From Nemertoderma westbladi (Eukaryota; Animalia; Xenacoelomorpha): a stretch of DNA of 64,000 nucleotides. Of this stretch, positions 13,302-39,306 are shown in pieces. Position 1 is the stretch's first letter; each line of letters opens with the position of its first letter. The DNA is taken from NCBI GenBank assembly GCA_032718475.1, contig JAUCBJ010002030.1:8422-72421 (forward strand), written 5' to 3'. A program made the translations under genes and the position numbers. Under the pieces are notes generated by a model, which saw only the letters and a program-made list of their open reading frames with translations, was not told the DNA's origin and ran no database searches.

Positions 13302-15200
13302 TAATGCGAAGAGACAGTAACAATACCTGCAATATCCTACTGTAAAGTTTGTGAATCAAATCATAAATCCGACCTTCTCACCAAACAGTAAACTCTAAGT
13401 AAGCGAATATATTGCAGTATCGATCTCTTATAACCGGTGAGGCAGAAAACAGTCTACGAGCAGACAAACTTCGATAAAACAAAATCCCGCGCAGCGAATC
13501 CTAAAATCAGGCTGACTCACTGACGGACTAAAGGGCTCGTATACTTTGCCGCGGTGTGATTTATATGGTTGGGCAAAGAGACGCTAGCTAGGTACAGAGG
13601 CAGAGATTTGGAGATGTCTAACTAGCGGGCAAAACACAGTAAGGACGAAAGTTAATTTTATATATTTTGAGGTGTAAATAATTTCTAACGCGCGTGTGTT
13701 AATTCTGAACGGTCAAAAGCAGTTTTGCTCCTTCACATGTATAATTACTGGGTACGGTGTGCATTTTACGAATATTCTAATTTTGTAACTTGTAGGTCCA
13801 ATACTCACGAATGATAAGGTTCCTTCCCCTCTTGCGTATTTCCAGGACTCAAATTCAGGCATAAGGTTAATGCTACGCCCAGAATTCGGCAATTTTAATT
13901 TACCAGGTCCCTAATACTAAGAAGAAATGTGTTAGTTTACTACAGTAGGCGTACGGTTACGAATAGCTATCCTGGCTCTTATCTAGAATTTTAGTCACCT
14001 AGGTAGGCTGGGTAACTTCCTATCAGGACGTTGGCGGGGACACGGTAGATGTTAGTATATCCCTAATAGCCTCAATTTATTTGCGCCTAGTTGTAAACTG
14101 CCCTACCGCCTGAATGGTACAATCCCAATTCAGGTGAAACACAGCAACCCTCCTAGCCTACAAGTTCTAATGCAATGGACACCGTTGTACTGCAAATAGT
14201 CGCAAACGCACCTGTACTTAGCAAGAGTTAGGCGTACAGTTTGCTGCACCCTACCAATGTGTATGCTTCGTACCGGCGTGCCTACGTCCTATCTGCGTAC
14301 TAGTATCTGCCTGCTCTCTCCCTCCCCCGTAGGAATATGAAGGTCTACTGTGGTTCTTTCCTGAATCAAGACAGTACAGTCCCTAAGATGTAATTTTAGG
14401 CTCACAGCGTGTCACTACTTCTACCTTTGATCTTTGGTCTTACGCTTAGGTAGCAAGGCGTCGAACGCTGTCTAACCTTTCAGGCGATGGGCGAATAACT
14501 AAGGTGGTATTGCGGGTTGTCTCCTGTCTACATTCCCTTGATGTTCCCGTTCATTGCTGCGGCCCGATCTCTAGCCGGCCATCCTGTTCCTAAGAGTGTT
14601 CACCGTAGTGAATCATGGTGAAAAGAAAAGCAGATAGCGGTATTTCTGAATTTATTGCAGATAATAATACAAAATGTAATCTGAAAACTAATGACAGAAT
14701 AAACAAGATTGAGTAACTAATAAGATTAGATAGATTGCACTGAGATTGATAACTAATGAACAAATCGCACCTTTATATAGCAAATTTGTGCTGCAATCAA
14801 TCGAGAAAATTCTCGATTGTTCTATAGGTTCTAACAGGTTTTTAAAGATAGCTATTGGTCCAGCTAATATATAACTTGCACGACATTGGATACAATCTAA
14901 TAACTGCAGTCTCATTGGTTAATCTAGGTACAAACAAATGCAATTTAATTTGTAGCGGTTAATTTAAATGAGTTGAAATTCTGTACAAAAAATAATTAGC
15001 ACTTACTAGGATTCGAACTCAATACCTACTACACATATAATTTCCAACGCTCTACCGACTGAGCTACTGAACCACTTGACTAAACGTCGTACAATAGATA
15101 TAATAAATACAAATGAGGACTCAAAGTAATCTTTTACAAAGTTAATTCGAATAAAATAAAATTTTGAAAATCCACGGCATTTAGGGAATATAATTCTATA
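13302..15200 (-). repeat. E1 3' LTR (1899 bp; sense termini TATA...ATTA)
   Basis: Direct repeat of 29884-32706 once the insert is removed. Confidence 0.95.
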
Positions 15201-15207: not shown

Positions 15208-15379
15208 ATGAAAACAGGATATTATCGTGCATAAAATATACGGTTTTCACCAATAATCAATCAAACTATAGAATACTTAGGGCGTACTTACATATTTACA
15301 ATTAAATTTTAAACAATACTTCCTTTCTACATAATGATTCGATACAAAATAATTACAAATTCAAACTTTACGTAGTTAA

Positions 15380-16085
15380 GGCTTTACTAAGTAAGTACAA
15401 TATAAATCTAAATTAAATTCACCAATATAAATCTATTGCATCTCAATATTGCATAAATTCATACAATTACAAATACAAATAAATGAAAATCATAAGAAAG
15501 GCTCGCGAGTCTTCCATCTACTATTGCATCTCAAATATTGCATAAATTCAAATAATTACGAATACTTACGTGCCTAAATGTAGATTGCATAAGTTCGGAA
15601 TAATTACAAATATGAGTCTTTCTAAGCACAAAACTTTCTAACTATAAAACTTTCTAAATACAAAATATAACACTTTACAAATGAAACTATAAGAAAGGCC
15701 CACGAGTCTTCCATCTACTCTTACTTTCTATTTCACTGTAAATACAAATACTGCTTATAAGATATAAATTGCATAGTATTCGGAACAATATAAATTGCAT
15801 AAGTTCGGAATAATCACAAATATAAAATATAAATTCTTACTAAATATAAATCTTTACTAAATATAAATATAAACTGCATAAGTTTAGAATAATATAAACT
15901 CCTTTACATCTCAAATATGAAACATAAATCTTTCAAATATAAGTTCCTTCTAAATATAAACTTTCTAAATTTCATAAATTCGGAACAATACAAATTGTAT
16001 AAGTTCGGATAAATATAAAATATATAACTCAAATAAATCACAAATTCACAAGAAAGGCTCACGAGTCTTCTGTCCACCCTTGCCC
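15380..16085 (-). repeat. E1 3' untranslated region of degenerate AT-rich tandem repeats, containing three stem-loop motif copies
   Basis: Recurrent TTGCATAAGTTCGGAA / AAATATAAA units; AGAAAGGCTCGCGAGTCTTCC-like copies at 15496, 15693 and 16052. Confidence 0.7.
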
Positions 16086-16089
16086 TCCT

Positions 16090-19000
16090 TTATCGCTTAG
16101 TTGATCGAGCCCTGCCGCGTCCTCGAAAACTGCGCACAGGTGACTTTGCTCGCGATATGGGACTTGTGGGGCGAGTCACTGGTTTCGTTTGGACGTTGAG
16201 AGACGGTGCGACTATTTCCTCGCAAATTCGTCTATTTGGCATCCCAAAACCTCGACCGATTCCTCGTGACCGATCAGTTGTCACTACAGTTGGTAGAACG
16301 TCTGGGAACGCGCGAGAAGCGGACGACACAGACCCAAGAGTAGCTTGCGCCCCCTTTTGATCAGCTGGTGTATGTCCCGATCCTCCTGTTGGTTCTCTAG
16401 GAAGCGATACCGTATCCCGAGTAATTCGAATGGTCGGCTCGACTCCCTTGCGTTCTTCTATATTAATAGACTTCTTTAACTGTTGGCCCACTTTCTGGAC
16501 CCGTATGATCCTACCCTGTCCGTCCTCCCGAGGGTGACGTGCAGACGGCGCAACCGGAGTGGCTGGTATATTTGTCGCCTCTAGGACCTCCTCTTCCTCG
16601 AATACGCTCGCTCGTATACGTTTATGGTAAAACGCGGCTCGGTACGCCCATGCGACGGTTAACCAAGCTCCTTTATTCCGCTTTTCAGTTCGGAAACGAT
16701 CGAATTCACCATACGTGATACGATTTACGACTTTCTGAAAATTCCACGTGTTTTTGTTATCCGGGTGAATCTGTAGTAGATACTCGCGCACTACTCGGAA
16801 TCCACTGTCGTGGGGCAAAATATCGACTACCTCGATAAGTTCGTCATATTGGGGCATAGCGGAGATATATCCTTCCGACATCATCGTTTGGGGATTTACC
16901 GCCCAAAATCCAAGATGCGCCCTCATCGGAAATCGTCTTCTTTGTGCCGATACATGTTCGTCGGCTAAATCTTCCCACTCATCAAATAATTTTCTCACGA
17001 GTTTTACAGATTCGTGTTCATAAGGTATGTCTCTTAGTTGGCATTCAGATGCTCGATGTCCCTTTATATTGCAATAAGTACATTGAGCCATAAATCTCCA
17101 GCAAGTATAAAAGGTATGAGACCCTTGATCTCCACACCATCCACAGATTAGCTGAGTCGTAGTAATGTGCTTTCCACTGCACTTGGTCATATGATGTCCA
17201 GCGACGCCACATTTACCACACATCGTATTGGCAGGGTACCACACTCGTTCGTATATAAGATCTCCAATCGGTCGAGCGCTTCCGCCCACACTATAATCGT
17301 AATCATCTGGATCTATGGGTTGGTAGGTTTCTGAAGGTTGTATACAAACTATAGCATCTGTTGCTTCAAGTTGTCGAATCTCCGTCTGAGATTTCTTCGG
17401 GAGGTTCCTTTCTATCTCAAGAAGTTCCTCTAAAGGATCGTCAGCGATCGTAGTAGTTACTTCGAAATCATCACCAAGGTGACCGATAGGCGCGCGCGTC
17501 TGCCGTGATTCATCCGTAATCTCCACGATACGTTCTCCTTCATAGGGTAACAATGTAAACATAGATGGTCTTTCGATAAGAGATCCCGCACAGCGAAGAT
17601 ACACGTCTCGAAATATACTAAATCCTGCTCGAGTAAAGGCATTACACTGAGCGTCGGAGTTGTAGAAGGGTTCAAGGAATCGTCTAAACACATCGGTATG
17701 AATTCTCCCTTCCATGTAGAACGTATGATCTTCTCCGAGACAAAGTGGATGTCTTTTGAGAGTCCGAGACACAATGTCGGCGATTAGGCAAACATTCACT
17801 GACGACTCTATTGCTAAATAATATTGTAAGACCGCTCTTGGAGGTGACGTAATAGCCCAATACACGCATCCTCTCCATTTAAGCTGTGATTCAAACTCAC
17901 TCATATCTGGAGTATCACCTTCTCCATAAGTCTCAATATACTTGTTTCTCTTACTTTCCTTATAATCCCAATTGAATAACAGGTAGGAAATGTATCCAGT
18001 TCCAGTCTTCTGAGTATTATACTCACGAAAATATCCCTGTTCTATAGACCACAAAATAAGAGGTTGAGTGTCGACGTAAGGTGTCGGTAGTCGGTCATCG
18101 CTGTCCGTCATGCCGGCGAAGTCGCTAATTAAGTCCTCCCTTACTCCTGATCCAATCTTTACAACAGTTTTATCTAAAATGATGTTTCTTACCATCTTCG
18201 GTAGCATTCTAGCGTCGATATTACAAGCTTGGTCCATCTTCTTTACTATGTCGGTGATAAGATGGTGTCGCTTTGTATTCGCTGGAGGTATCGGCATTCG
18301 TTTGTCGCTCCTCTGTCTACTGAAAACGTGCAGGACTCCGTCCGCCGCTCTAATTTGTATAGTCTTAGAAGTCAAACTCTGCTGATGACTGCCGCCCTCG
18401 TTATCGTAAAACATGTAACCATTTTCATGAAACGATCTAAACGTCCTATTCCATTCATCCAACAATTCTTCCGAAGGTTGCCAAATCTTCTCTATGTCCT
18501 TATCATCTTCGAAACGAATAACCTTACCTCGCCAATCCGCGGCAATATCTGTATCCGACTCGAAGGTTCCGGTTCCAATCCATAAACGAATCGTCTTGGT
18601 TAAATATCCTTTCAGATTACTCGGAGCTATATCGGCACCAGCTCTATCCAGTTCCTTAAAGTCTTGAATATGAGGTGGAACGTTGTACACGACCTTTTGA
18701 GTAATATGTCTACGTAAATCATATATCTTACTCATATCGCTGAAAACAACTGCAGGAAGAAACTCCAAGTTTGAAATGATTTCTGGATGATCCACGATGG
18801 GTATTTCGTACGTCGTATCCTGTCGGACTGGTATACTAATAGGAAAATTGAGTGTCGTACTCAATGGTTTCGTAGTTAAAGTACTATATGGTTGCATTTC
18901 TCTTGTCCTCTCCGGGGATGCAATCTGTAGTCTCTGAATAACGTTTTGAGCAAAGTTTATGCTCTCGAAAACTTCCGGTGTCATCTCCTTAGCTGGAGTT

Positions 19001-19815
19001 TGATCGTGTGACGTCCAATGGCAAGGTAGGCTCGCGAGTCTTCCGCCCCATTCTTCCATCTCACCTTTCTCGAAAGCCTTGTAGGCTCTGTATAGGCTAA
19101 GAGCTTCTTTCTTTTCGCGGGTTGACTGATTTGCCTCGTCCAGCGTAAGTTCAAATACATCGGGATCAACAACCTTAGGTGGGTAAATGACAGTTTCTCC
19201 CGCCTTTGGTCCGGTCATAGCAAATGAATGATATGGATTCGATAAAGGATACCCTCCTTCCTGGTAGCGTAGTTGTTGATGGTTCGAACACCTCGCCAAT
19301 ATCGGTTCGGGATTTTCCTTATTCAAATGCATCGGAATCGCATTTCGTTGTTCGCGCATACAAGAACCGCATTGATAATAAAGTTTATAAACTGAAAATG
19401 CTTCCTTGGTTTCTCTATCGTCCCCTCGAGTTCGTCTGTAAAGATGCATTCCATCGAATTCATCTCTTACCGCGGGCATAGGTTCGTGCGCCTTTAGGTA
19501 TTGCATGGTATGATACAAACGACTAATTTCAGTATCGGGGTCTTCGCTAATGTCTCCCGTATCACACAAAGCGTCGTACGGGTAAAGTTCATTGAAGGTT
19601 TTGCGCAAACTTTCGATTCTTTCGTTTAATGCATTTTGTCTTCTCTTTAATACGTTCGAGTCATATTTAGTTCTCGCGAGTTTCGCTGTACTTTCCGATA
19701 ATTCCTTTATACCGAATATAGTGTAGTCCTTGGCTCCAAATCTTTCAAATGGCGCTGCTGCCTCCTCTTGGATATCATATCCCCATCTCGGCTCTCCCTG
19801 TATCACTTTCTCCAT
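16090..19815 (-). CDS. E1 ORF3 (~1241 aa from the first ATG): unassigned N-terminal Cys/His domain + DEDDy 3'-5' exonuclease-like domain + 3 CCHC zinc knuckles + basic tail
   Basis: Intact ORF. ExoI-like FYDNEG followed by TIQIRAADG; LPKMVRNIILDKTVVKIGSGVREDL (ExoII); YVDTQ; W...P...QYYLAIE (ExoIII-like). Knuckles CGKCGVAGHHMTKC, CGWCGDQGSHTFYTC, CTYCNIKGHRASEC. Confidence 0.85.
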   Translation of the reverse strand: MEKVIQGEPRWGYDIQEEAAAPFERFGAKDYTIFGIKELSESTAKLARTKYDSNVLKRRQNALNERIESLRKTFNELYPYDALCDTGDISEDPDTEISRLYHTMQYLKAHEPMPAVRDEFDGMHLYRRTRGDDRETKEAFSVYKLYYQCGSCMREQRNAIPMHLNKENPEPILARCSNHQQLRYQEGGYPLSNPYHSFAMTGPKAGETVIYPPKVVDPDVFELTLDEANQSTREKKEALSLYRAYKAFEKGEMEEWGGRLASLPCHWTSHDQTPAKEMTPEVFESINFAQNVIQRLQIASPERTREMQPYSTLTTKPLSTTLNFPISIPVRQDTTYEIPIVDHPEIISNLEFLPAVVFSDMSKIYDLRRHITQKVVYNVPPHIQDFKELDRAGADIAPSNLKGYLTKTIRLWIGTGTFESDTDIAADWRGKVIRFEDDKDIEKIWQPSEELLDEWNRTFRSFHENGYMFYDNEGGSHQQSLTSKTIQIRAADGVLHVFSRQRSDKRMPIPPANTKRHHLITDIVKKMDQACNIDARMLPKMVRNIILDKTVVKIGSGVREDLISDFAGMTDSDDRLPTPYVDTQPLILWSIEQGYFREYNTQKTGTGYISYLLFNWDYKESKRNKYIETYGEGDTPDMSEFESQLKWRGCVYWAITSPPRAVLQYYLAIESSVNVCLIADIVSRTLKRHPLCLGEDHTFYMEGRIHTDVFRRFLEPFYNSDAQCNAFTRAGFSIFRDVYLRCAGSLIERPSMFTLLPYEGERIVEITDESRQTRAPIGHLGDDFEVTTTIADDPLEELLEIERNLPKKSQTEIRQLEATDAIVCIQPSETYQPIDPDDYDYSVGGSARPIGDLIYERVWYPANTMCGKCGVAGHHMTKCSGKHITTTQLICGWCGDQGSHTFYTCWRFMAQCTYCNIKGHRASECQLRDIPYEHESVKLVRKLFDEWEDLADEHVSAQRRRFPMRAHLGFWAVNPQTMMSEGYISAMPQYDELIEVVDILPHDSGFRVVREYLLQIHPDNKNTWNFQKVVNRITYGEFDRFRTEKRNKGAWLTVAWAYRAAFYHKRIRASVFEEEEVLEATNIPATPVAPSARHPREDGQGRIIRVQKVGQQLKKSINIEERKGVEPTIRITRDTVSLPREPTGGSGHTPADQKGAQATLGSVSSASRAFPDVLPTVVTTDRSRGIGRGFGMPNRRICEEIVAPSLNVQTKPVTRPTSPISRAKSPVRSFRGRGRARSTKR

Positions 19816-20478
19816 AATTAGGGGTGTAGTTACATAATCATTACTACTAGAGGGAATACAACAGAGTTTTGTAGTTAGTTGTGAGGAGACGTGAGAGTTT
19901 CGTCTGCCCTTTGGGCTCGACAACGCTCTAACCTCCTACCCATAGCCTAAGATCTAGGGTTTCTTTAATGACACGCTGCTTCTTATCTAAAATTTTTTGC
20001 CGAAATAAAAACGAATTTGGGCTAAACTGGCTGTGAGTCTAAAATACTCACTTTTTGATCCCAAACTATTATCAGAAAATAAGCAATCAAGAATTAGTAA
20101 TAAATATAGGGGAGTCTATTTATTGACGTAACTTATTGAAACAAGACCGTGTAAAATTTTAATTAAAAATTTAAGAAAGGCTCGCAAGTCTTCCTCTCTT
20201 GTTTCTCTAATTTTAAGTTCCACCCGACTGTACCCTGAAATCTATTCACTGGAGAAAATTTTAAAAATTTTTCAAATCCAAATGGATTGTCTAAAATTTC
20301 GAAAATGTCTCAATATTGTGAGTTCCAAGTAGAATTCCATTTCTTATACCTACAAATCCCGCTCCTATGTGACACATAAGGGTACCACCCTCAATGTTCA
20401 CATATAAAGACAATGGAATTCTACCGCTGTCCTTACTATGGTGTACAGGTACGTGGAAATCTATTTGTAAACTCCTAA

Positions 20479-23400
20479 TTATTTACTAATATTAGGTGGA
20501 GATTTGTAGTCTCCAGAATCGTTACGAGTCTCTTCAAGAAGTACGAGACGTTGAGTCGGTCTGTCTACTGTACGACCGTCAATTGTCCGTACCGTCACAG
20601 TTCTTGTCACTCCATCCATAGATGGATGTGTGTCTAAAATTACACCTGTTATCCAGAAGCGTCTTTTTAGATTCACTTCCGCTAACAGCACGTGATCTCC
20701 CGGCTTTAATGCGCGGGTGTTATTGTACCAAGTTGTTCTGGCAGAAATAGAGGGCAAATAATGGTTTTGCCATATTTCCCAGAATTTGTTAGCTAGTAGT
20801 TGCGTGATTTTCCACGCCTTTCTACCGTAGCTATCGCTTTCTATTGGAATAGAAATAGGCGTCAATGTGGTCGGTGCCTGCATTAGCAGGTGTGCCGGTG
20901 TCAAAGCAAACTGAGATTGTTTGTCATCGGGTACTAATACTATTGGTCTAGTATTTAGTATTGCCTCGATTTCAACAAACAATGTTGTCAGTTGGTCGTC
21001 TGTCAATATGTGGTTTACTAGAATGACCTTTGCCATGGCTGTCTTTATAGATCTAATCAATCTCTCCCAGACTCCGCCTCTCCATGGACTATCTGGAGGA
21101 TTAAACTTCCAAACAATCTTGTAAGGACGTAGTTCGTTTGAGATTTGATCATGATCTAATTTCTTAAAGGCTCTAGCAATCTCATTCCGAGCACCAACAA
21201 AGTTTGTCCCTTGGTCTGAGTACAAGCATTTCACTAGTCCGCGTCTAGCGATAAATCGCCGCAATGCTAGTATAAACGCGTTGGTGGAAAGATCCATCAC
21301 ACGTTCAATATGAACTGCCCTACTGGACATACATGTGAAAATCAGTCCCCAGCGTTTTACTAGTATACGTCCACGTTTCGTATGTATGGGACCAAAGCAA
21401 TCAATTCCAGTCTCTGTAAAAGGTGGTCTGAATGCTTGAAGTCGTGCTTGTGGAAGTTCACTCATTTCTTGGGTACCTATTCTAGAATGTACCTTTTTAC
21501 AAATAATACACGTACGTGTCACTGAACTTAATGCTTTACTGGGTCTAATTAATACAAATCTTGTACGTAAGTAGGAAAGACAGTGGTGTCTTCCAGCGTG
21601 TTTCAGATGTAAATGTGCGTCCAGTATCATTGCACGTTGTAGTTCGTGATGCTGCGGTATTATTATTGGGTATCTAAAGTTTGTGTTAAAGTCAATGTTT
21701 TGAAGCCGAGATTTATGACAAATTAAGCCATTATAAATAATCGGACTCCAACTCAGTATTGGTGACGACTTGATTGGTTGACCTTGATTTATAGATGTGA
21801 ATTCGCGTGCGAAATATCGCAGTTGGTAATGGCGAATTAATTTAATTTCACACCTGTCAATCTCAGCCAATGTAAGTCGACGTGTAAAGTCTCGTTTGCC
21901 TTTAACGTATTGTACAAAACGTACAATCCACGCTAATTTTCGGCAAGCGTTTGTCCAAGAGTCTGTTAAGTTTACAATACGGTCGACGTGAGTATTTGTG
22001 ACGTCATCAGGTAAGTCAATGGAGATTTTGGAAGGTTTTGATTTACTAGAAGGGCCCACGGGTCCGCCGGTAAGTATTCCCTTGTTGACTGTTGATCCGT
22101 CCGGGTCTACAAGTAATTTGTCCTTCTTCGTCTTCTTACCTTGATTGTCAGTACTTTGTAAGTCGATCGTTAATGGTGGTTTGAACTCTATGGGGTCACT
22201 GGGTTTCGGTAAACTTATTTTTCTGCCGACATTAATCCCAGGTCTTACCATAGGTTGCAAGTTTGGTATGTCTCTTGAGCGCAAAGTAACACCTGTATTT
22301 ACATTAGCGTAGGTACTACCCACATCTGTAATACATGAGGTTTCACCGTGCTTACGGTTGCTCAAGTGTGTCAAATTTGGTAGTTTGTCAATACAAGGCC
22401 GCTCCAATAGAGAAACTGCGGCTTCACTATTTGTCAGTATGTCACTAGTGTCTGGTAGAACATTTTGTGATATGTCTGGCAAAATGTCTGGTTGGCTGTC
22501 TAGTAACGTGTCTAGTTGACCGTCTGGCGATATGTCTGGTGTAGAAAGGCTCGCAAGTCTTCCTCTCTTGACCTTTGAAGTTATATCTTTCCATTTCGCC
22601 TTCGGTTTTTTCTTGAGTTTAGCCGCCGTCTTTTTCTTTGCTTTCCCTTTCTTTGGTTTTTTGATTTCCGCGTCTTTAGGGATAGTGTTAGACTTGTTGT
22701 CATATAGTGGTGGCCAATTTAGTGTTGATCTTTGTAAGAATTGTGGTCCGTGTTGCCAAAATTCTTTGTTCTCCGGTTTACAGAATTCCTCAGGCATCAT
22801 TCCTCTTGACGCAATATCGGCTGGGTTTTGTGGTCCGGGACAATGTCTCCAATCTTCTTTTATTGAACGGTCTAGAATTTCCGCGCGACGGTTAGCTACG
22901 AATGTCTTGAATTCAAGTGTGTCGTTGTTTATGTAAAATAAAACCAACGTCGCGTCAGTCCAATAAAATATCTGTAAACTTGACTGTAGTTCTGTCTGTA
23001 TAAGGTTCACAATTGTGGTTGACAGTGTTGCGGCTTGTAGCTCAGCTCGTGGTGTCGTCATATACTTAGTAGGCATTGTTTTTGCCTTAGAAGTAATGAG
23101 CGAAACATCGAATTCTTCTGAGTCTACTTGTCTGCGCAAGTACGCTGCCACACCAAAACCGTTGTCACTGGCGTCCGAAAAACAATGTAATTCCAAGTTG
23201 TCAGGAAATGTTGTTTGTAATGGAAAGTAGACTCTGGGTATGGAATAATCCTCTAGCGAAGATAATTCTGCCTCCCAGGTCTTCCATAAGTCCACTTGGT
23301 CTGATGAGATCGGCTCGTCCCATGTCAGTCCATCCTTCCAAATACTGCGCATATAAATGCGGGCTTGCAGTATTATTGGACTGATGAATCCTAATGGATC

Positions 23401-25944
23401 GAACAATCGGCTCAATTTTGACAAGCATGATCTCTTTGTCAGTGTGTTTTCTTGACTGTCCAGTCTCACCCTCACTCGAAAGTTGTCTGTGTTTGGGTCC
23501 CAAAAGAGCCCCAACACCTTGGTCGTCGGTAGTGGTTCGAACTCTAGGTCTATGTCACCACCTCCACGCTCAGTCGTTCCGAATGAGTCTACTAATTCGG
23601 CACTGTTTGAGGCGAATTTGGTGAGGTTAAAACCTCCGCCCGCTAAGCAGTCCCGTAATTGATGTGCTACTGTTACAGCACGTTCTACTGTGTCACAACT
23701 CTGTAAACCGTCGTCGACGTAAAAGTCACGCTCCACAATCCTAATTATCTCTGGGTCATATAAATGTTTCTGATCCCTAGCGGCTTGTTTTAGGGCGTAC
23801 ATCGTACAGTTTGGGCTGTCTCTGGCACCGAAAACGCGAACTTGCATTTGGTAAGTCGCCGGTGGTAGACTTAAGTCTCCTTCCGGATACCAGAGGAACC
23901 TCAAACTGTCTCTGTCTTGCTCTAACGCTCTCACTTGGTGAAACATAGCTTCAACGTCACAAGTAAAAGCTACTTGACGCTGACGGAAGCGCATAATCAC
24001 CCCCATAAGATAATTATTCATGTTTGGTCCATCCATCAACTCGCTATTGAGGGACATTCCCTCAAACAGAGCCGCACAGTCATTGACTACACGTACTTTG
24101 TCTGGTTTGTCGGGGTGTCTCACATAGTGATGTGGCAGGTAGTATGTCTGGTTAGTCACTATCTCTGGGTTAGTCATTCGGATAGCGTATCCCTTAGTCA
24201 AATACGTCTCCATCTGAGTGTTGTACTGCAGATGGGCTTTCTCGTCCTTTAATAGACGTTGCCGTATTGAGTGTAGACGTCTTAAAGCTAGTGGGTAGTT
24301 ATTTATAAGTTTAGGACTTTGGCTACGCCATAACATCCCCACCTCATAATGTCCGTCTTTCGCCTGGCGGATAGTATCTTCCATGATCCTCAAAGATTGT
24401 TTCTCCTGTTCCGACATACATGGTTCGTAGCTACCAGGTTCAGCTGTATCTTGTTCTAACCACCTGATAGTCTTCTCCGTTAATTCTTTGTCCAATGCAG
24501 CTTGTTCCACTTGATGATTTCTCAACGCGTCATCATCGATATCGACGGGCATTGTTGAGGTTGTTGGGGTAGGTAGACTCGCAAGCCTTCCGGCGTTATC
24601 ATCTGTCGTCGATGGAATCTCTAGCTGACTCGTCTTCTCCCCAAGTTCTAAACTCACCTGGTGAATTAGCTGCTCCTTGTGACTTATCTTACTAGTTACA
24701 CGTCTGTCATGTTTTGTATGTAAGGTAGTATGGTCCACGTCGTGTGAAAAGGAATGAATTGAATTTGTAGTTAATAAACTACATGTACTTTGTACATCGT
24801 CTTCCTCGTCACTTATGTCCAGTGTGCGCACAGGCGCTCGAGTATACCACCCTATCGGCGTTCTACAGGCGTATGCGTTTCCCGCTACGACTGCCGATGG
24901 TCTGGTTTCCCACACTTGATGTAGGTTGAATTGGTCTGTCCCGATCAGCATGGCTACCGATCTATAATTGACAGGACATTCAGGTACACCAAGGTGTCTG
25001 AAATATTTACGGTCCTCCAAGGATTGTTCTGGGACAGGACCTAGTAGGTTACTAAAGTCTTTGGTGGCCACAAAAGTCAAATCCTTGAAGGGTAACAAAG
25101 ACCTCTCCTTTTCGCTGTGTTGCGATTTTGGAAGAAGAGTGTCTAAGTTTAACTTAACTCGTGTCACTGGTATTGCACGTTGTCCGTGCATACTACTTAC
25201 GGTGTAACTGACGCGCTTACCTTGTCTGAGATCCGTCACTACATCAGCTATCTGCTCATCCACGTAGCTGTGAGATGAGGCTGAATCCAGGATAGCGTAG
25301 ATTCTCTTGCTCCCCTTTGTGCCAGTAATCTTAATTGGAATTACGCTGAATCCCTTTAGTTGGTCAGTCGTCAGAAGCGCGATCGATGGTTGGTCGTCTC
25401 CATCAGAATATACGTCGTCGTCTTCTGACTCTTCGTCCAACGATCCGGATTGTTCTGAGAAGCAATCCTTGATATGTGTCACAAAGGTTGGAGTCGTTTT
25501 CGATTCTCGATTTTTGTAGGCCGCATCACATCTCGCTGCTGCTTCCGGGTGTTCCCTGGCGAAGCGTTTTGTTGGCGTGTGGCTGTCTGTGTGGAGCAGA
25601 CCGTCGTGGTTGTGTCCACAGGATGGACAAGTGTTGGTATTTGGGCAATCTTTGCGAACGTGTCCGTGTCGCGTACACCGCCAACAAGAGTCCAATGGCC
25701 GTATCTGCAGCCGTCGTTCTTCCGAGTTTAACTCGCGAAACTGTCGACAACCTCTCAACTTGTGACCGATATACCGCTTGCCTAAATGCTCGCAGTATTG
25801 GCAGCCGCTGAAGTCGGTACCGAGTTGCTGTCTAGTCTGTTTTGTCCCAATGGGCGCAGATACCCTACTACCGTCCGAGAATTGTCGGGTTTCCGTCGGT
25901 GTGGCGTAAGTGGCCGTCTTGGTGGATGTTGTCTGGGGTTTTTG
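20479..25944 (-). CDS. pol: E1 NC-Pol: three BEL zinc knuckles, aspartic protease, RT, RNase H, integrase (in frame with gag, after a single TGA)
   Basis: CWRCTRHGHVRKDC, CPSCGHNHDGLLH; ILDSAS; YYLPHH, CDVEAMF, FYVDD; CFSDAS, RAELQAA, WTDA, NPAD; H...H...CIIC, GIDCFG, SDQGTNF, WERLIRS. Frame is open from 25944. Confidence 0.95.
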   Translation of the reverse strand, partial: QKPQTTSTKTATYATPTETRQFSDGSRVSAPIGTKQTRQQLGTDFSGCQYCEHLGKRYIGHKLRGCRQFRELNSEERRLQIRPLDSCWRCTRHGHVRKDCPNTNTCPSCGHNHDGLLHTDSHTPTKRFAREHPEAAARCDAAYKNRESKTTPTFVTHIKDCFSEQSGSLDEESEDDDVYSDGDDQPSIALLTTDQLKGFSVIPIKITGTKGSKRIYAILDSASSHSYVDEQIADVVTDLRQGKRVSYTVSSMHGQRAIPVTRVKLNLDTLLPKSQHSEKERSLLPFKDLTFVATKDFSNLLGPVPEQSLEDRKYFRHLGVPECPVNYRSVAMLIGTDQFNLHQVWETRPSAVVAGNAYACRTPIGWYTRAPVRTLDISDEEDDVQSTCSLLTTNSIHSFSHDVDHTTLHTKHDRRVTSKISHKEQLIHQVSLELGEKTSQLEIPSTTDDNAGRLASLPTPTTSTMPVDIDDDALRNHQVEQAALDKELTEKTIRWLEQDTAEPGSYEPCMSEQEKQSLRIMEDTIRQAKDGHYEVGMLWRSQSPKLINNYPLALRRLHSIRQRLLKDEKAHLQYNTQMETYLTKGYAIRMTNPEIVTNQTYYLPHHYVRHPDKPDKVRVVNDCAALFEGMSLNSELMDGPNMNNYLMGVIMRFRQRQVAFTCDVEAMFHQVRALEQDRDSLRFLWYPEGDLSLPPATYQMQVRVFGARDSPNCTMYALKQAARDQKHLYDPEIIRIVERDFYVDDGLQSCDTVERAVTVAHQLRDCLAGGGFNLTKFASNSAELVDSFGTTERGGGDIDLEFEPLPTTKVLGLFWDPNTDNFRVRVRLDSQENTLTKRSCLSKLSRLFDPLGFISPIILQARIYMRSIWKDGLTWDEPISSDQVDLWKTWEAELSSLEDYSIPRVYFPLQTTFPDNLELHCFSDASDNGFGVAAYLRRQVDSEEFDVSLITSKAKTMPTKYMTTPRAELQAATLSTTIVNLIQTELQSSLQIFYWTDATLVLFYINNDTLEFKTFVANRRAEILDRSIKEDWRHCPGPQNPADIASRGMMPEEFCKPENKEFWQHGPQFLQRSTLNWPPLYDNKSNTIPKDAEIKKPKKGKAKKKTAAKLKKKPKAKWKDITSKVKRGRLASLSTPDISPDGQLDTLLDSQPDILPDISQNVLPDTSDILTNSEAAVSLLERPCIDKLPNLTHLSNRKHGETSCITDVGSTYANVNTGVTLRSRDIPNLQPMVRPGINVGRKISLPKPSDPIEFKPPLTIDLQSTDNQGKKTKKDKLLVDPDGSTVNKGILTGGPVGPSSKSKPSKISIDLPDDVTNTHVDRIVNLTDSWTNACRKLAWIVRFVQYVKGKRDFTRRLTLAEIDRCEIKLIRHYQLRYFAREFTSINQGQPIKSSPILSWSPIIYNGLICHKSRLQNIDFNTNFRYPIIIPQHHELQRAMILDAHLHLKHAGRHHCLSYLRTRFVLIRPSKALSSVTRTCIICKKVHSRIGTQEMSELPQARLQAFRPPFTETGIDCFGPIHTKRGRILVKRWGLIFTCMSSRAVHIERVMDLSTNAFILALRRFIARRGLVKCLYSDQGTNFVGARNEIARAFKKLDHDQISNELRPYKIVWKFNPPDSPWRGGVWERLIRSIKTAMAKVILVNHILTDDQLTTLFVEIEAILNTRPIVLVPDDKQSQFALTPAHLLMQAPTTLTPISIPIESDSYGRKAWKITQLLANKFWEIWQNHYLPSISARTTWYNNTRALKPGDHVLLAEVNLKRRFWITGVILDTHPSMDGVTRTVTVRTIDGRTVDRPTQRLVLLEETRNDSGDYKSPPNISK

Positions 25945-28900
25945 TCAGTTTGAGGATGGCAAGGTGATTCCTTCTGCCACGATGTGCTGGTCAGTGTAGT
26001 TGGATTGAGTTTCTACCACTGCCTCCCTGGATATCAAAATGTACACATCCTCCAGTTTTAAGAATCCATCCCGCTCTTCTCGCTGGTATTCGATCTTCCT
26101 CCACTCCCGACGAAGTCGATGGTGGAGTCGTCCTATGATCTTTAATAGGACTGTAGGGGTATTCCCGTAGTCAAGTTGTCCAATGGATCTCAAAGTAGTG
26201 ATAGCGTTCTTTATCTCGTCAGCCAGTTTCAATAAGTCTACGGGTTTAGTAATAGCCCCTCCCTTACAGAGTTCCTCTATCACTGACCTGGCCATGCTGA
26301 CTGTACCTCTGTAGATCGAAGTTAAACGATCGTACGCTAGTTCGAAAGCGTCCGGTACACCAACAAAGGTCTCCGCCAAACGTTTAGGTTCTCCTGACAA
26401 CGTTTGAAGCAGGTAATTAAACTTCTCCCGTGATGTAAAGGCGCACACGGCGATCTGAGATTCGATATAGTCTACGAAAGTGTGCCAGTGTTTTGAACTA
26501 CCGGAAAACTTCGGTGGTTGTTGTACCGGCAATCCCTGTCTGGCTGCGAATTTCGCTATCTCCTCGGCAACGTTCAGAATTTCGCGTCCTTGGTTGGTAA
26601 TCTGGTTGATATCCCTTCTTGGCGCTTTTCCCTGATACGATGTGTGTTTTGAAGGTACCGGTCTTTGTGGTTCCTTCGGGTGTCTATTGTGTTCGAATTC
26701 AGTGTTCCTCGAACTATCGGTTTGAACTTCCTCCAGACGTTCCTCAATCTGAGCCAACTTGTTAACAACTGGTCGCAGGATGTCGGCGAACTGTTGTATA
26801 CTGATTGCGTCCGTTGGTTGTAACGCCTTCTGTGTTGGTGTATTCTGTGGAGGATTGTCTACAAAGGAGTTGTCTGAACGCTCGCGTTTATATTCATCGG
26901 CCGCCCCTGTTCTAAATACCTCGCGTTTCGGGTAATCCGATTCGCTCGAAGTACTACTATCATCTGGATATGGTGGTCGACATGTTCGCGTCCGTTGCGT
27001 CGTCCGAATTCTAACGTTTCGCCTCGGAACATCGTCCACTGATCTCCGCTGCTCGGTAGGCTCACAAGTCTTCCTTGAAGTCGTAGATTGCGATGTAAAC
27101 TGGTTGAACGGTCGCATATCCACTGGTCTCCGTTGTTCGGTAGGCTCACAAGTCTTCCTCGAAGTCGTAGATTGCGATGTAAACTGGACCGGTGGTCGAA
27201 TAGCCGCCTTTGAATCAACTGGCCTTGTAGGCCGAAATGTCATTGGGTATTCGTAGTGTGTAACCGGTTTAGGTGTCAAAGGTGGACTCACGTGTTTTGT
27301 CGTTAGTAGTGCAGGTCCGGTCAATAAACTACTACGATCTGTAATCGGTGGGTTACTTACCTTGACTTTCAGAATAGGCGACGACGTTGCTCTTGGCGGT
27401 GTAAACTTGTCCGGAATAACAAACCTGTGTTCCGTCGCACCATGGATAGGAGAAATATCACTACTACCCGCAATCGAAACAGGTTTCTTAGTTGTAACTG
27501 GTGCGAACATAGGGGTTACTTGAGGGAATCTTTGACATAAGTCTTTAACTAATTGTCGTTCCCGTCCGGGTGCTCCTACGCTTCCTTCCTTCTTCCGTTC
27601 CTGAATTTGGCGATGTCTTACCTCTAACTGGTCCAAATCATGTCCGTCACGAGATCTCATTGATCGATCGCGGGCCTTTTGATCCAGATCCTCCTCGGCG
27701 TTCGCTAATTCTCTCGCCTTCTTCTCGAGTTCAAAATGAAGTTTAGCTGTCTTCTCTCGTTGTTCCGTTTGTTGTCGTTGCGCCTCAAACTCCGCTTGTC
27801 GTATAGCGGATTGAGCTTTTATTTGCCGTGTTTTCATTTCGGCCCGTGCTTCCGAAACTAATCGTTCTCGCTCTAATTCCGCCACTGCCGTTTGTCGCTC
27901 TAGTTCTGCCATTTGTCGCTCTAATTCCGCCGCTGCCGTTTGTCGCTCTAGTTCGGCCGCTGCCGTTTGTCGCTTTAATTCTGCCGTTTGTCGCTCTAAT
28001 TCCGCCGCTGCCGTTTGTCGCTCTAGTTCTGCCGCTGCGTTTCGTTGCGCTAAATCAGCCGCTGCCGTTCGTTGAGCAATGTCTACCTCTAACCTTTCTA
28101 CTTCAGCTGCTTCTAATTCAGCTTGTTCCTGTAGATGAGAGATTCTCGCTACATTCGCAACGCGTAGCTTCTCTTCTTCTGCTGCTGCCTGCATCACTAG
28201 AAGTTGAGCTTGTTCCTCCATTTCTCGTCGTTGTCGGTAGAATTCTTGCTGTTGTCGAGCAACTTCTGACGTAACCATACTTCCCTCGCCAATTTCGCTA
28301 CGAATACTTACCAACGATTGATCCAATATTCCCGTTGCCGATTCGATTCGTACGGGTGAAGTTTCCCTCGTATATTCCGGCACGGTTTCCAAATCGCCGA
28401 CGTCGACGCACATACGTAAGTGATCCGTCAGGTGTTTCAATTGTCCATCCAGTCGGTACAGTTCCTGTTCTTCCTCGGGTTGTAATAATTCGTCCGAAAC
28501 TGACTCACCTAACAACTGGTCCGCTTGTTCCTGTTGTATCTGCCTAATCGTCGACTTAAACTGAATCAGTTTCTCTCTAGCGATCATTAGTTTATCGAGG
28601 ATTCTAAGTTGAGTATCCATGTCCTGTCTCTGTCTAGCTAGATCTTGTAGACCAATTAGGTTATCTACGGACTTGTGTACTCTACTTTGTACTCTAACCT
28701 GGAGGGTGTAGAACTCGAATCGAGACATCGGAGCGGTCAACTCGTTTAAAATGCGTTGGCCTTCTCCAATACTCCTGGTTATATGCGCCATGTATCCGCC
28801 GACGCTTCTAACCACACTCTCCTGACTTCCTGCTGAACTTACCATGTCTGTTTCCCTGTATCTAGGTTGTGGAACAGTTAGAAAGTCCTCGGTCCTGCCG

Positions 28901-29073
28901 TCGCCTCGTACTACGGCATCCGGTACTCCCGTTGGATGTACTGGTGACGCACACGGTGTAGGTTCGGTAGGCTCGCGAGTCTTCCCCTGTTGTTCTTCCG
29001 CTGCTGACTTATCTCCGTCGCATGAGTCATAGTCGGTAGGTGTATTCTTCGTATAGTCTTGTTTGTCACTCAT
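25945..29073 (-). CDS. gag: E1 Gag (1042 aa; coiled-coil TAAAELERQ repeats, BEL capsid-like region)
   Basis: PPKFSG..W..F...EKFNYLLQTLSGEPK...AYDRLTSIY motif typical of BEL/Pao Gag; lies after the 5' LTR. Confidence 0.92.
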   Translation of the reverse strand: MSDKQDYTKNTPTDYDSCDGDKSAAEEQQGKTREPTEPTPCASPVHPTGVPDAVVRGDGRTEDFLTVPQPRYRETDMVSSAGSQESVVRSVGGYMAHITRSIGEGQRILNELTAPMSRFEFYTLQVRVQSRVHKSVDNLIGLQDLARQRQDMDTQLRILDKLMIAREKLIQFKSTIRQIQQEQADQLLGESVSDELLQPEEEQELYRLDGQLKHLTDHLRMCVDVGDLETVPEYTRETSPVRIESATGILDQSLVSIRSEIGEGSMVTSEVARQQQEFYRQRREMEEQAQLLVMQAAAEEEKLRVANVARISHLQEQAELEAAEVERLEVDIAQRTAAADLAQRNAAAELERQTAAAELERQTAELKRQTAAAELERQTAAAELERQMAELERQTAVAELERERLVSEARAEMKTRQIKAQSAIRQAEFEAQRQQTEQREKTAKLHFELEKKARELANAEEDLDQKARDRSMRSRDGHDLDQLEVRHRQIQERKKEGSVGAPGRERQLVKDLCQRFPQVTPMFAPVTTKKPVSIAGSSDISPIHGATEHRFVIPDKFTPPRATSSPILKVKVSNPPITDRSSLLTGPALLTTKHVSPPLTPKPVTHYEYPMTFRPTRPVDSKAAIRPPVQFTSQSTTSRKTCEPTEQRRPVDMRPFNQFTSQSTTSRKTCEPTEQRRSVDDVPRRNVRIRTTQRTRTCRPPYPDDSSTSSESDYPKREVFRTGAADEYKRERSDNSFVDNPPQNTPTQKALQPTDAISIQQFADILRPVVNKLAQIEERLEEVQTDSSRNTEFEHNRHPKEPQRPVPSKHTSYQGKAPRRDINQITNQGREILNVAEEIAKFAARQGLPVQQPPKFSGSSKHWHTFVDYIESQIAVCAFTSREKFNYLLQTLSGEPKRLAETFVGVPDAFELAYDRLTSIYRGTVSMARSVIEELCKGGAITKPVDLLKLADEIKNAITTLRSIGQLDYGNTPTVLLKIIGRLHHRLRREWRKIEYQREERDGFLKLEDVYILISREAVVETQSNYTDQHIVAEGITLPSSN

Positions 29074-29872
29074 TTCGGTAGTTGTAAGTCAAGTAAAGTG
29101 AGTGTCAAAGTATCAAACTTACCATATTTTATCTAAACGGTACTAATTACAGTCATATAAAATTAGCCTACCGGCCGATTTTATAGCAGATGGATAAAAT
29201 TAGCCTAAACGGCCAATTTTACAGCAAATAAATGTCACGGAATAAGTATATAATAAAATTAGCCTAGCGGCCAATTTTATAACAAATAAATCGGATAACG
29301 ATATGCGTTATCAAAAGGTAAATTAAATACAATAATACGGACTAATTCAGCAATGAACAAAGAAATCGTACGGAATGCATAAATACTTGAGGCAGTGGAA
29401 CCCACAATAATTTTAACTAATACGGTAATGCCTAACTTATTTATGCAACTTTTCGAACTCACCCACTCCAATAATTCTCCAGAAAAACAGATTCCCAGAT
29501 ACAAACCGGACGTGAACCTTTCCGTTTTTAACGTTGCGGACGAAGCGCGATTTTCCCAACCAAAGTTGTTGAGTTATCTATCTCCCAAACTTGCTAAACA
29601 CGGTCTTGCTCCCGTTACAGTCTAGAAATGAGTTCTGAATCCTGAAAAAACAAAAGAGTTAGGTTTTACTTTTTACGAAAATTTTGTACCGGTACAATAT
29701 GGTATTTAAACCCTTTTAAACACCGGTATTCAATTCCAAAATATTTTACACGCGGTTCAAATCAAATTTTTATTTCAAAAAATTAGCACTTAGCTAATCA
29801 AATACAAATTTTTACCTCAAAATACAAAATTTTCAAATAACTTTAGTCCTACCGAACCGTAGTTCAGTAAAA

Positions 29873-29883: not shown

Positions 29884-32706
29884 TAATGCGAAGAGACAGT
29901 AACAATACCTGCAATATCCTACTGTAAAGTTTGTGAATCAAATCATAAATCCGACCTTCTCACCAAACAGTAAACTCTAAGTAAGCGAATATATTGCAGT
30001 ATCGATCTCTTATAACCGGTGAGGCAGAAAACAGTCTACGAGCAGACAAACTTCGATAAAACAAAATCCCGCGCAGCGAATCCTAAAATCAGGCTGACTC
30101 ACTGACGGACTAAAGGGCTCGTATACTTTGCCGCGGTGTGATTTATATGGTTGGGCAAAGAGACGCTAGCTAGGTACAGAGGCAGAGATTTGGAGATGTC
30201 TAACTAGCGGGCAAAACACAGTAAGGACGAAAGTTAATTTTATATATTTTGAGGTGTAAATAATTTCTAACGCGCGTGTGTTAATTCTGAACGGTCAAAA
30301 GCAGTTTTGCTCCTTCACATATATAATTACTGGGTACGGTGTGCATTTTACGAATATTCTAATTTTGTAACTTGTAGGTCCAATACTCACGAATGATAAG
30401 GTTCCTTCCCCTCTTGCGTATTTCCAGGACTCAAATTCAGGCATAAGGTTAATGCTATGCCCAGAATTCGGCAATTTTAATTTACCAGGTCCCTAATACT
30501 AAGAAGAAATGTGTTAGTTTACTACAGTAGGCGTACGGTTACGAATAGCTATCCTGGCTCTTATCTAGAATTTTAGTCACCTAGGTAGGCTGGGTAACTT
30601 CCTATCAGGACGTTGGCGGGGACACGGTAGATGTTAGTATATCCCTAATAGCCTCAATTTATTTGCGCCTAGTTGTAAACTGCCCTACCGCCTGAACGGT
30701 ACAATCCCAATTCAGGTGAAACACAGCAACCCTCCTAGCCTACAAGTTCTAATGCAATGGACACCATTGTACTGCAAATAGTCGCAAACGCACCTGTACT
30801 TAGCAAGAGTTAGGCGTACAGTTTGCTGCACCCTACCAATGTGTATGCTTCGTACCGGCGTACCTACGTCCTATCTGCGTACTAGTATCTGCCTGCTCTC
30901 TCCCTCCCCCGTAGGAATATGAAGGTCTACTGTGGTTCTTTCCTGAATCAAGACAGTACAGTCCCTAAGATGTAATTTTAGGCTCACAGCGTGTCACTAC
31001 TTCTACCTTTGATCTTTGGTCTTACGCTTAGGTAGCAAGGCGTCGAACGCTGTCTAACCTTTCAGGCGATGGGCGAATAACTAAGGTGGTATTGCGGGTT
31101 GTCTCCTGTCTACATTCCCTTGATGTTCCCGTTCATTGCTGCGGCCCGATCTCTAGCCGGCCATCCTGTTCCTAAGAGTGTTCACCGTAGTGAATCATGG
31201 TGAAAAGAAAAGCAGATAGCAGTATTTCTGAATTTATTGCAGATAATAATACAAAATGTAATCTGAAAACTAATGACAGAATAAACAAGATTGAGTAACT
31301 AATAAGATTAGATAGATTGCACTGAGATTGATAACTAATGAACAAATCGCACCTTTATATAGCAAATTTGTGCTGCAATCAATCGAGAAAATTCTCGATT
31401 GTTCTATAGGTTCTAACAGGTTTTTAAAGATAGCTATTGGTCCAGCTAATATATAACTTGCACGACATTGGATACAATCTAATAACTGCAGTCTCATTGG
31501 TTAATCTAGGTACAAACAAATGCAATGGAGCCACTCCACGAGGCGAACCGCGCGGCACTGCGGGCGGCCACAACAACGCCACTCGAGATCGCCCGTCTTA
31601 ACGTTGTTGACGACCCGGTATCCGGTTGTTGGCTGGACGCTATTCCCATCAGCTCGCTAGGGCTGAAACTCACGGACTCCCAGTTCAGGGTTTCTGTCGC
31701 CACACGCCTCGGTTGCAAGTTAACCGAACCCCACAGGTGCTCCCGGTGCGGATCCGAAGTAAAACCGGATGGTCTCCACGGACTATCCTGTGTGAGAAGC
31801 GCCGGGAGGCTGCCACGCCACTCTATGTTAAACGACATAGTGAAACGTGCATTGGCCTCCTGTGGGGTTAGAGCTCGCCTTGAACCGGTCGGGTTGTGTA
31901 GGGCTGATGGGAAGCGTGTCGATGGCGTTACCCTCGAATCGTGGAGTGGGGGCCGGCCGATGACTGGGATGCGACCGTCGTCGACCCCCTCGCTCCCAGT
32001 CATCTCGCCCAGAGCATGCAGGCCGGCCGCCATGTTGTCGAGGAGGCGGAAAACTCAAAGATTAAGAAATACGAGGAACTGACCGTCCGAGGGAGCTACC
32101 TCTTCTACCCGGTAGCATTCGAGACCTTCGGTCGGCCCGGTCCTGAGACGGCTGCATTCCTTAAGGAGGTTGGCCGACGCCTCCACGCAGCCACTCAGGA
32201 GCCGCGATCCCATCGGTTCCTCCTCCAACGTCTCCTCGTAGCCATCTTGATCGGCAACACGGCCTCCATCCTCGGCTCCATGGACCCTCTGTCCGACGGC
32301 CTCTACGACGAGGTTTTGTCGCCAGCTGCCCCCGCACCCCCCACTGACTCAGCGGGTTAGACTGATCTTGAACTTTTGTATATAGTTAGGTAGGTAGTTT
32401 ATATTAATTTAGTTAGTGTGCCTCATTGTGCTATAAGAAAATAATGCAATTTAATTTGTAGCGGTTAATTTAAATGAGTTGAAATTCTGTACAAAAAATA
32501 ATTCGCACTTACTAGGATTCGAACTCAATACCTACTACACATATAATTTCCAACGCTCTACCGACTGAGCTACTGAACCACTTGACTAAACGTCGTACAA
32601 TAGATATAATAAATACAAATGAGGACTCAAAGTAATCTTTTACAAAGTTAATTCGAATAAAATAAAATTTTGAAAATCCACGGCATTTAGGGAATATAAT
32701 TCTATA
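29884..32706 (-). repeat. E1 5' LTR, interrupted by a 916-bp CRE-like insert
   Basis: Matches 13302-15200 at offset 16582 before and 17506 after the insert. Confidence 0.95.
31527..32442 (+). mobile_element. 5'-truncated CRE-like non-LTR retrotransposon (zinc knuckle + restriction-like endonuclease), frameshifted
   Basis: CSRCG...HGLSC, RHSMLND, DGKRVDG, WDATVVD, EEAENSKIKKY, FYPVAFETFG; 8-bp TSD AATGCAAT at 31519-31526 and 32443-32450; absent from the other LTR. Confidence 0.88.
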
Positions 32707-39301: not shown

Positions 39302-39306
39302 TACAA

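Follow-up and report, generated by a model that had tools for sequence, protein, structure and literature searches.

Twelve copies of a 20-nt near-palindrome are dispersed through a 19.4-kb Bel/Pao long terminal repeat (LTR) retrotransposon on the minus strand of the 64-kb window (the whole stretch of DNA analyzed here), and all 12 are in the sense orientation. The motif probably forms a hairpin that is under selection, as judged from the compensatory changes in two degenerate copies. Our tentative explanation, which we consider plausible if somewhat short of probable, is that the copies constitute a family-specific hairpin tag on the sense RNA, with loop guanines bound by the element's own CCHC knuckles, most likely those of its ORF3 protein.

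The element and its motif copies

The element is flanked by a 5-nt target-site duplication (TAGGG at both ends) and bounded by a 1,899-nt 3' LTR (13302..15200) and a 5' LTR (29884..32706) that is 99.6% identical to it and broken by an insertion of ∼0.9 kb. The gag gene (DUF1759; 25945..29088) ends at an in-frame TGA and is followed by the knuckles and pol (20479..25944), which codes for protease, reverse transcriptase (RT), RNase H, and integrase of the Bel/Pao type. The gag-protease-RT-RNase H-integrase order is that of Pao-type elements, and the assignment to Bel/Pao is supported by matches to DUF1759 (E 7e-11), Peptidase_A17 (E 2e-42), and DUF5641 (E 2e-20), as well as by 1,108 homologues at an E value of 1e-50 or lower. 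Bel/Pao elements typically begin and end with TG...CA and keep gag and pol in a single frame; the one copy examined has TA...TA termini, and the TGA separates gag from the knuckles. No close relatives were found through pol in viral or metagenome contigs, and an Rfam scan of positions 13000 to 33000 returned two matches at E ≤ 5, both far below the gathering score.

Ten copies reported in the initial annotation are confirmed, all on the minus (sense) strand. Three are in the 3' untranslated region (UTR), at 15496..15515 (loop CGCG), 15693..15712 (loop CGUG, with a U.G closing pair), and 16052..16071 (loop CGUG, G1 changed to A), the last being 18 nt past the ORF3 stop; the 15693 copy is a local duplicate of the 15496 copy, and joints in some family members skip it. 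The copy at 19025..19044 lies between the N-terminal and exonuclease domains of ORF3 and is read as GRLASL, as is that at 22544..22563, in an insertion between RNase H and integrase, which has 28 identical nt in common with the copy in the pol-ORF3 spacer (20175..20194). The copy in the protease-RT linker (24572..24591) has G.U in place of A.C, those at 27055..27074 and 27139..27158 (both with loop UGUG) are the two units of an 84-nt duplication in gag, and that at 28966..28985, near the gag N terminus, is read as KTREP and has a 3' flank complementary to the leader over 11 nt. A sequence-only matrix adds two degenerate minus-strand copies, one in the linker that joins the exonuclease domain of ORF3 to its knuckles (17485..17504; 20.9 bits), which has G-C rather than U-A as its closing pair, and one in the RNase H-integrase insertion (22049..22068; 12.8 bits), with compensatory 4:17 G-C and 8:13 C-G pairs; the next unrelated site scores 8.0 bits, and scores like that of the weaker 22049 copy are expected by chance ∼0.1 times per element strand.

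A 17-nt pattern with up to three mismatches matches 15 times against 0.23 expected and a largest shuffle of 2. The shuffle comparison is not a probability, and the copies are not mutually independent. Besides the 10 copies on the minus strand, the 15 matches include four plus-strand shadows of those near-palindromes; the remaining one is an eleventh site, at 17488. Five of the 12 copies are downstream of pol, in ORF3 or the 3' UTR, and seven are upstream of ORF3. The spacing, put earlier at roughly every 1 to 3 kb, ranges from 84 to 2,483 nt. Absence from the LTRs is upheld, the highest score there being 9.1 bits (E 3.6), and the motif is also absent from the 0.8-kb 5' leader, from positions 28986 to 29883, and from the rest of the window. 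Among 18 distant Bel/Pao loci (131 kb), there is no motif-level match (best E 0.064), no ORF3 homologue, and no comparable internal dispersed word. Scans elsewhere gave only single matches, at 26 viral and 94 metagenome loci, and none of these 120 resembles the element by tblastn or by long blastn alignment; seven metagenome loci with a copy in common were rejected, the match being due to an unrelated multicopy region. Kinship with the histone stem-loop, bacterial REP sequences, or the BANP CGCG element was considered and rejected, as there is no Rfam match and the shared letters are inconstant across copies.

Constraint on nucleotides rather than protein, and the polarity of the motif, are both supported. 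As proposed, coding copies are read in different frames, two being used, GRLASL type (codon position 1) and KTREP/KTCEP type (codon position 2), and placement in linkers holds for all three pol copies, which fall where identity among 40 homologous polyproteins is at most 0.08, a level seen in 19% of pol windows. Changes in the loop are all C to U, yet variation in the family is strand symmetric (C>T at 167 and G>A at 161 places in run X1). Only 1 of 15 variant places in the 3' UTR is inside a copy, where the variant restores the common U-A pair; conservation in the family is nonetheless weakly supported, with p about 0.05 to 0.08, five indels not shown, and a single variant that may reflect cross-mapping. 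A 9-nt indel at 24588 touches the outer foot of the 24572 copy at 11% (X1) and 42% (X3) of depth, and 3' UTR copies have been both gained and lost among family members. Seven of the 12 copies are without core substitutions and the flanks are mostly unrelated; beyond the 84-nt duplication, only two pairs of copies share at least 5 flanking nt. Copying of short segments in the course of reverse transcription probably spread the motif, as the 28-nt and 84-nt shared tracts suggest, and the copies were probably retained at sites where protein coding tolerated them.

Hairpin pairing and the question of strand

The hairpin is supported by the two additional copies, which were recovered blind to structure and show compensatory 8:13 (G-C/C-G) and 4:17 (G-C) changes. 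The loop residues G10 and G12 are invariant, the sense covariation score of 0.228 is reached in none of 500 shuffles and exceeds all six slid registers, and the core substitutions in four copies would all preserve pairing by chance with a probability of 2.6e-5 to 2.6e-3; a covariance model was trained on all 12 copies and does not score them independently. The A.C-to-G.U change at 24572, the U-A-to-U.G change at 15693, and restriction of the loop to C/U variation are all borne out. In the stem described earlier as having eight positions, only 4 of 10 distinct rows have a pair at 3:18 and only 1 of 10 has one at 6:15. Dimerization through the self-complementary CUCGCGAG core is not supported, as just 3 of the 12 copies preserve this core intact.

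The sense strand is not supported as the obvious folding strand. The hairpin is in the minimum-energy structure of 4 of 10 sense 32-mers (z-scores from −1.5 to +1.6), predicted pairing in context over six context sizes averages 0.05 to 0.11 on the sense strand versus 0.38 to 0.80 on the antisense strand, and the consensus energy is −1.1 versus −3.6 kcal/mol. With 50-nt flanks, antisense pairing reaches at least 0.9 in 6 of 12 copies, whereas sense pairing is at most 0.34. The sense A.C pair becomes G.U on the antisense strand, on which 10 of 12 copies form an unbroken 5-bp core and 11 of 12 have the G.U, and the G1-to-A change at 16052 pairs only there. However, antisense covariation is weaker (41 of 500 shuffles score as high), 6 of 9 distinct rows have no pair at 2:19, and the 15693 and 24572 copies lose pairing. 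Pairs valid on the sense strand only include one-sided changes at 2:19 (G-C/G.U) and 8:13 (U.G), as well as the G.U at 24572. As sense pairing is marginal and the antisense strand pairs better, either strand may be the functional one.

The ORF3 protein

ORF3 (16090..19935, minus strand; 1,281 codons from stop to stop) codes for an N-terminal domain also present in element E2, a DEDDy-like 3'-5' exonuclease domain, and three CCHC-type knuckles; by its sequence relationships it is a putative EXD2-like DEDDy exonuclease with knuckles. Exonucleases of the DEDDy type have four acidic catalytic residues and the Exo III tyrosine; the candidates here are D511, E513, D601, Y706, and E710, the first four of which are invariant, and the last acidic residue is E here and D in all three homologues. 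The ORF3 profile matches EXD2 (E 1.1e-6), its Atlas feature matches are 3'-5' exonuclease clusters (0.92), and PF01612 matches the homologue P0127 at E 0.011, below the curated cutoff. A Pfam search with ORF3 alone gave no match and word-seeded protein searches found nothing; a full HMMER search gave four matches, three of which have the true exonuclease-plus-knuckles architecture. Searches of viral and genome contigs with the ORF3 alignment gave no close relatives and no DNA surrounding the homologues, and the co-occurrence of motif and ORF3 is that of one family. Predicted models of the exonuclease domain (pLDDT 30.6 and 39.1) are too poor for active-site geometry, and a fold search gave no match at E ≤ 0.001, with EXD2 ranked first. 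E2, also in the window, shares the ORF3 N-terminal domain (E 4e-11) and, as a single case, lacks both the exonuclease-knuckle part and the motif; a GTAGGTTGAC word that occurs three times in its ORF3 was rejected, having no common hairpin.

Possible roles of the repeated hairpin

If the motif is a tag on sense RNA, the stem would include a protonated A.C wobble, which is isosteric with G.U (as in the 24572 copy), and would need a bound protein because it is marginal alone. Against a sense-strand stem, conserved G.U pairs are more common than conserved A.C pairs in functional RNAs. The element's CCHC knuckles would bind the invariant loop guanines and mark every element transcript as self, the candidate reader being the ORF3 exonuclease-knuckle protein, and the tagged RNA would then be protected against the exonuclease domain, or accompanied by it, until enclosure by Gag. 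The suggestion that knuckles read the tetraloop is a fair lead, in that knuckle 1 of Rous sarcoma virus (RSV) nucleocapsid is described as stacking on the guanines of a UGCG loop; but in the same study changing UGCG did not reduce specific binding by whole Gag (PMC5035970).

The better antisense folding accommodates an unlikely alternative, in which the hairpin acts in antisense RNA (or, less likely, minus-strand cDNA) and, folded there by a central G.U, lets an element protein recognize antisense copies of any multi-kilobase part of the element and destroy or sequester them. Along with the 5-bp core, it draws on the absence of a Watson-Crick pair at 6:15 in any of the 12 copies, so that the wobble itself seems selected, on a longest gap between copies of 2.5 kb, and on the exonuclease-like domain of ORF3. 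Against it stand the antisense mismatches and weaker covariation noted above, a CRCR loop with invariant C's, which is a poorer fit for knuckles, a fold of only 0 to −1.7 kcal/mol as DNA, and the free end that a 3'-5' exonuclease requires. A strand-discriminating self-defense, with hairpins that fold only on antisense RNA and are used by ORF3 to clear the antisense precursors of small-RNA silencing, and those of its own family only, is improbable; the G.U/A.C asymmetry would set the folding strand, and any element fragment longer than ∼2.5 kb would carry one hairpin. Dispersed packaging signals like those of simple RNA viruses, by which Gag nucleocapsid knuckles would choose the genomic RNA and fold it, are rather unlikely. 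Multiple dispersed stem-loops with a common loop motif do fit the packaging-signal model (PMC6281560), and with seven copies upstream of ORF3 genomic RNA would be more heavily tagged than an ORF3 message. However, the five copies in ORF3 or the 3' UTR would also be on a subgenomic ORF3 RNA, the splicing of which is suggested by a donor-like site at 29122; the Gag knuckles are behind the in-frame TGA in the examined copy; no such repeat is present in Bel/Pao loci that share this Gag type; and a leader-type packaging role is not supported, there being no copy in the leader or LTRs.

The near-palindrome, with pseudo-palindromic half-sites around CGCG, could also be a double-stranded DNA site for an element or host protein, acting in the manner of the anti-silencing motifs of the VANDAL/VANC system. 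Two CpGs, the high copy number in the element with absence elsewhere in the window, and a precedent in plant DNA transposons (PMC6719617) speak for such a site, and marginal RNA folding would be irrelevant to it. We nonetheless consider it decidedly improbable, since compensatory double changes are unexpected for a duplex site, loop variation lacks two-fold symmetry (only TG, never CA), all 12 copies share one orientation, and CpG is not depleted in the element (observed/expected 1.15). It is very improbable that the copies are a neutral micro-repeat that template switching carried into tolerant linkers and whose pairing is kept by hairpin-templated repair. Shared flanks from segmental copying, the gain and loss of 3' UTR copies, and the location of every coding copy in an unconserved linker fit that account, but seven copies without core substitutions persist despite mostly unrelated flanks, and the 22049 copy changed both 4:17 and 8:13 yet retained the intervening mismatch, which a single repair tract would have erased.

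Retroviral psi (RSV SL-C; PMC5035970) resembles the predicted hairpin in its G-containing YGYG-type tetraloop and short stem, and both kinds of element encode CCHC knuckles, but psi is a single leader element, whereas the 12 near-identical copies here are in gag, pol, ORF3, the spacer, and the 3' UTR, with none in the leader. The packaging signals of single-stranded RNA viruses (MS2, enteroviruses, and HBV; PMC6281560) are likewise dispersed stem-loops with a common loop motif, but share only a sparse motif, unlike this near-invariant 20-mer of a retrotransposon with a candidate non-capsid reader. The bdelloid LTR retrotransposons Juno and Vesta (PMC5408684) have a separate ORF3 after pol that codes for a DEDDy-type 3'-5' exonuclease with one catalytic D-to-E change; they are not Bel/Pao elements and have a DEED motif, whereas the ORF3 described here is much longer, has three knuckles, and has E as the last residue, and the available part of their description does not mention a repeated cis motif. 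VANDAL/VANC (PMC6719617) also combines a family-specific short motif in many copies with an accessory element protein, but is a plant DNA transposon system with a tandem DNA motif and DNA demethylation, as opposed to the polar hairpin of an animal-type LTR element, whose protein is unrelated. The protein Egalitarian (PMC13186709) has a 3'-5' exonuclease homology domain and takes part in RNA stem-loop binding, but is a host protein whose signals have no fixed sequence, and the best solved match of ORF3 is EXD2. Neither a motif of this kind nor a Bel/Pao ORF3 with DEDDy and knuckle domains was found described in literature in which subscription papers and Repbase reports are thinly covered.

Self-RNA recognition by LTR retrotransposons is known mainly from leader elements, and a 20-nt tag present 12 times, even in coding linkers, and with covariation of its own gives a compact handle on it that can be tested directly. 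As a candidate target, the motif also bears on the exonuclease ORF3s found in LTR elements, the role of which is left open in the Juno and Vesta report (PMC5408684). The authors of a 2019 review were aware of no factor encoded by an element against the piRNA pathway (PMC6719617); the antisense reading, if true, would represent a family-specific counter to small-RNA silencing.

E1 and its family

The Bel/Pao LTR retrotransposon E1 occupies 13302-32706 on the - strand, with LTRs that are 99.6% identical and a flanking TAGGG target duplication. It codes for a gag (DUF1759), a knuckle-protease-RT-RNase H-integrase frame (Peptidase_A17 and DUF5641), and a 1,281-codon ORF3 downstream of pol (16090..19935, -). 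The closest homologues of its pol are ~43% identical, and the named ones are from molluscs, cnidarians, and other animals. Run contigs pile up deeply on E1 with ~1,100 variant places in 12.6 kb, indicating that the family is large and diverse, contig depth not being equal to copy number. The integrated termini are TA...TA rather than TG...CA (13302 and 32706), the sense end being CA plus three extra bases. An in-frame TGA (25945-25947) between gag and the Gag knuckles is either a readthrough site or a lesion of this copy; if it is family-wide, the main Gag product would be without knuckles.

The 5' LTR contains a ~0.9-kb insertion (31527-32442) bounded by a short direct repeat, which by eye is a piece of a non-LTR element of the kind that carries a restriction-like endonuclease; two frames tested gave no Pfam match. 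The insertions here are nested (10721-13301 and 32707-35428): E1 lies inside an endonuclease-RT frame of LINE type, with another Bel/Pao element immediately to its left.

The 5' LTR is not followed by a TGG-type primer site. The 11 nt directly after the LTR are exactly complementary to an LTR-internal 11-mer (29873-29883 and 30911-30921; p 0.006, shuffles), which is reminiscent of Tf1-type self-priming. Against the likeness, the best TATA box lies ~400 nt upstream of the LTR 11-mer, TGG is likewise missing at this place in each of the five control loci whose site is readable, and control locus L128 also has an 11-nt complement. The leader segment 29848-29858 is complementary over 11 nt to the 3' flank of the motif copy at 28966 (28961-28971) and pairs over 10 nt with that of the 27139 copy.

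Motif copies and hairpin pairing

The ten sense-strand copies of the 20-nt YGYG-loop motif reported in the initial annotation are all present at the coordinates given there, with 15 pattern matches against 0.23 expected. A matrix built from these ten, using no structure information, adds one copy at 17485, scoring 20.9 bits, and another at 22049, scoring 12.8 bits, the next unrelated site reaching 8.0 bits. A background of 120 unrelated loci, scanned on both strands (722 kb), gives secondary scores above 12 bits 11 times and above 20 bits once, so the 17485 copy is secure and the 22049 copy, on score alone, has roughly one chance in ten of being incidental. As described before, the motif is missing from the LTRs; it is likewise missing from the leader and from the remaining 45 kb of the window. 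Coding copies use two reading frames, in line with the different frames noted initially, and the six gag-pol copies all lie in unconserved stretches (0-8% identity among 40 homologues). There is no match in Rfam.

The twelve copies form ten distinct rows for pairing analysis. Pair 8:13 occurs as U-A, U.G, G-C, and C-G, 4:17 as A-U and G-C, and 2:19 as G-C and G.U, with 5:16 and 7:14 invariant. The covariation score exceeds those of 500/500 shuffles and all six slid registers, although relatedness of the copies inflates such tests. Random placement of the same number of core substitutions retains all pairs with a joint p of 2.6e-5 to 2.6e-3, the value varying with transition bias and A.C being counted as a permitted pair at 6:15. 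A suggested role of CUCGCGAG in dimerisation is unlikely to be general, since it is preserved in only 3/12 copies.

Within the family, 15 substitution places and 17 indels (12 shown) are called at 15440-16120. Only one substitution falls within the 63 motif positions, where it restores the common U-A pair, and none of the shown indels does; this depletion (p 0.049 assuming that the hidden indels are also outside, about 0.08 by hand calculation on shown events) gives weak support for conservation. At several joints the 15693 copy is passed over, and in some family members a 9-nt indel extends to the outer foot of the copy at 24572; both argue against a strict need for every copy. Two contigs of run X3 continue past a motif into sequence resembling, by eye, the stretch from 16052 to the ORF3 stop, hinting that a diverged subfamily may retain the motif at this position.

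ORF3 as candidate reader

ORF3 has no Pfam match, but a full HMMER search identifies three homologues (P0125, P0126, and P0127; 558-621 aa, from ENA and Logan assemblies) with a common plan of an exonuclease-like domain, a linker, three knuckles, and, at the C-terminus, a conserved segment. The profile made from these homologues matches human EXD2 (E 1.1e-6), and Atlas neighbours are 3'-5' exonuclease clusters. Residues D511, E513, D601, and Y706 are invariant, but because the last acidic residue is E instead of D, exonuclease activity is uncertain. DEDDy ORF3s occur in bdelloid Juno and Vesta elements, in an account that demonstrates no function for them (PMC5408684).

The related element E2 shares only the N-terminal CxxC-containing domain of ORF3, and both E2 and eighteen distant Bel/Pao loci, many partial, are without the exonuclease-knuckle part and without the motif. 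This joint absence fits ORF3 as a putative reader, with one positive family. E2 (39305-52068), itself a Bel/Pao copy, terminates in TG...CA and matches E1 in its polypurine-tract end, with no RT or integrase found by tblastn; a further relative starts near 60000 on the + strand.

Possible functions of the motif

That the hairpin functions on the antisense strand is unlikely, although energetics favour it: in 11/12 copies the bases at 6:15 give A.C in the sense orientation and G.U in the antisense orientation, and in none of the twelve do they form a Watson-Crick pair. Nearest-neighbour models, which assign A.C zero pairing energy, give alignment folding energies of -3.6 (antisense) versus -1.1 kcal/mol (sense), with mean in-context pairing of 0.38-0.80 versus 0.05-0.11. 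Against this, three kinds of change pair on the sense strand only (2:19; 8:13 in 15693; 6:15 in 24572) versus one on the antisense only (1:20 in 16052). Neither loop G10 nor loop G12 varies, and every loop change is from C to U (perhaps 2-7 independent events), unlike the strand-symmetric variation of the family (167 versus 161). Sense RNA is also the molecule that E1 must handle, and the sense strand is distinctly the more probable functional one.

The initial proposal of a distributed packaging signal agrees with the dispersal of the copies but not with their placement: retroviral packaging signals are situated in the leader, where E1 has no copies, and five are in ORF3 and the 3' UTR. This distribution is more in keeping with a tag carried by every element RNA than with a genomic-RNA selector, and packaging signals read by Gag are slightly less probable than antisense function. 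A duplex DNA site is improbable, and a neutral repeat a little more so; simple hairpin-templated repair is disfavoured because the 22049 copy has changed both pairs flanking the central mismatch while keeping the mismatch. The small remainder falls to a host protein as reader.

Single ingredients of the system have precedents in NC-read tetraloops (PMC5035970), dispersed packaging signals (PMC6281560), VANC motifs (PMC6719617), and Egalitarian (PMC13186709), beside the DEDDy ORF3s. None of the papers searched contains the motif letters or describes anything comparable in an LTR retrotransposon, and the motif is from one family. The leading reading, held tentatively and at somewhat below even probability, is that the motif is a self-tag of E1 sense RNA, which E1 knuckles, most likely those of ORF3, would read by binding the loop guanines.
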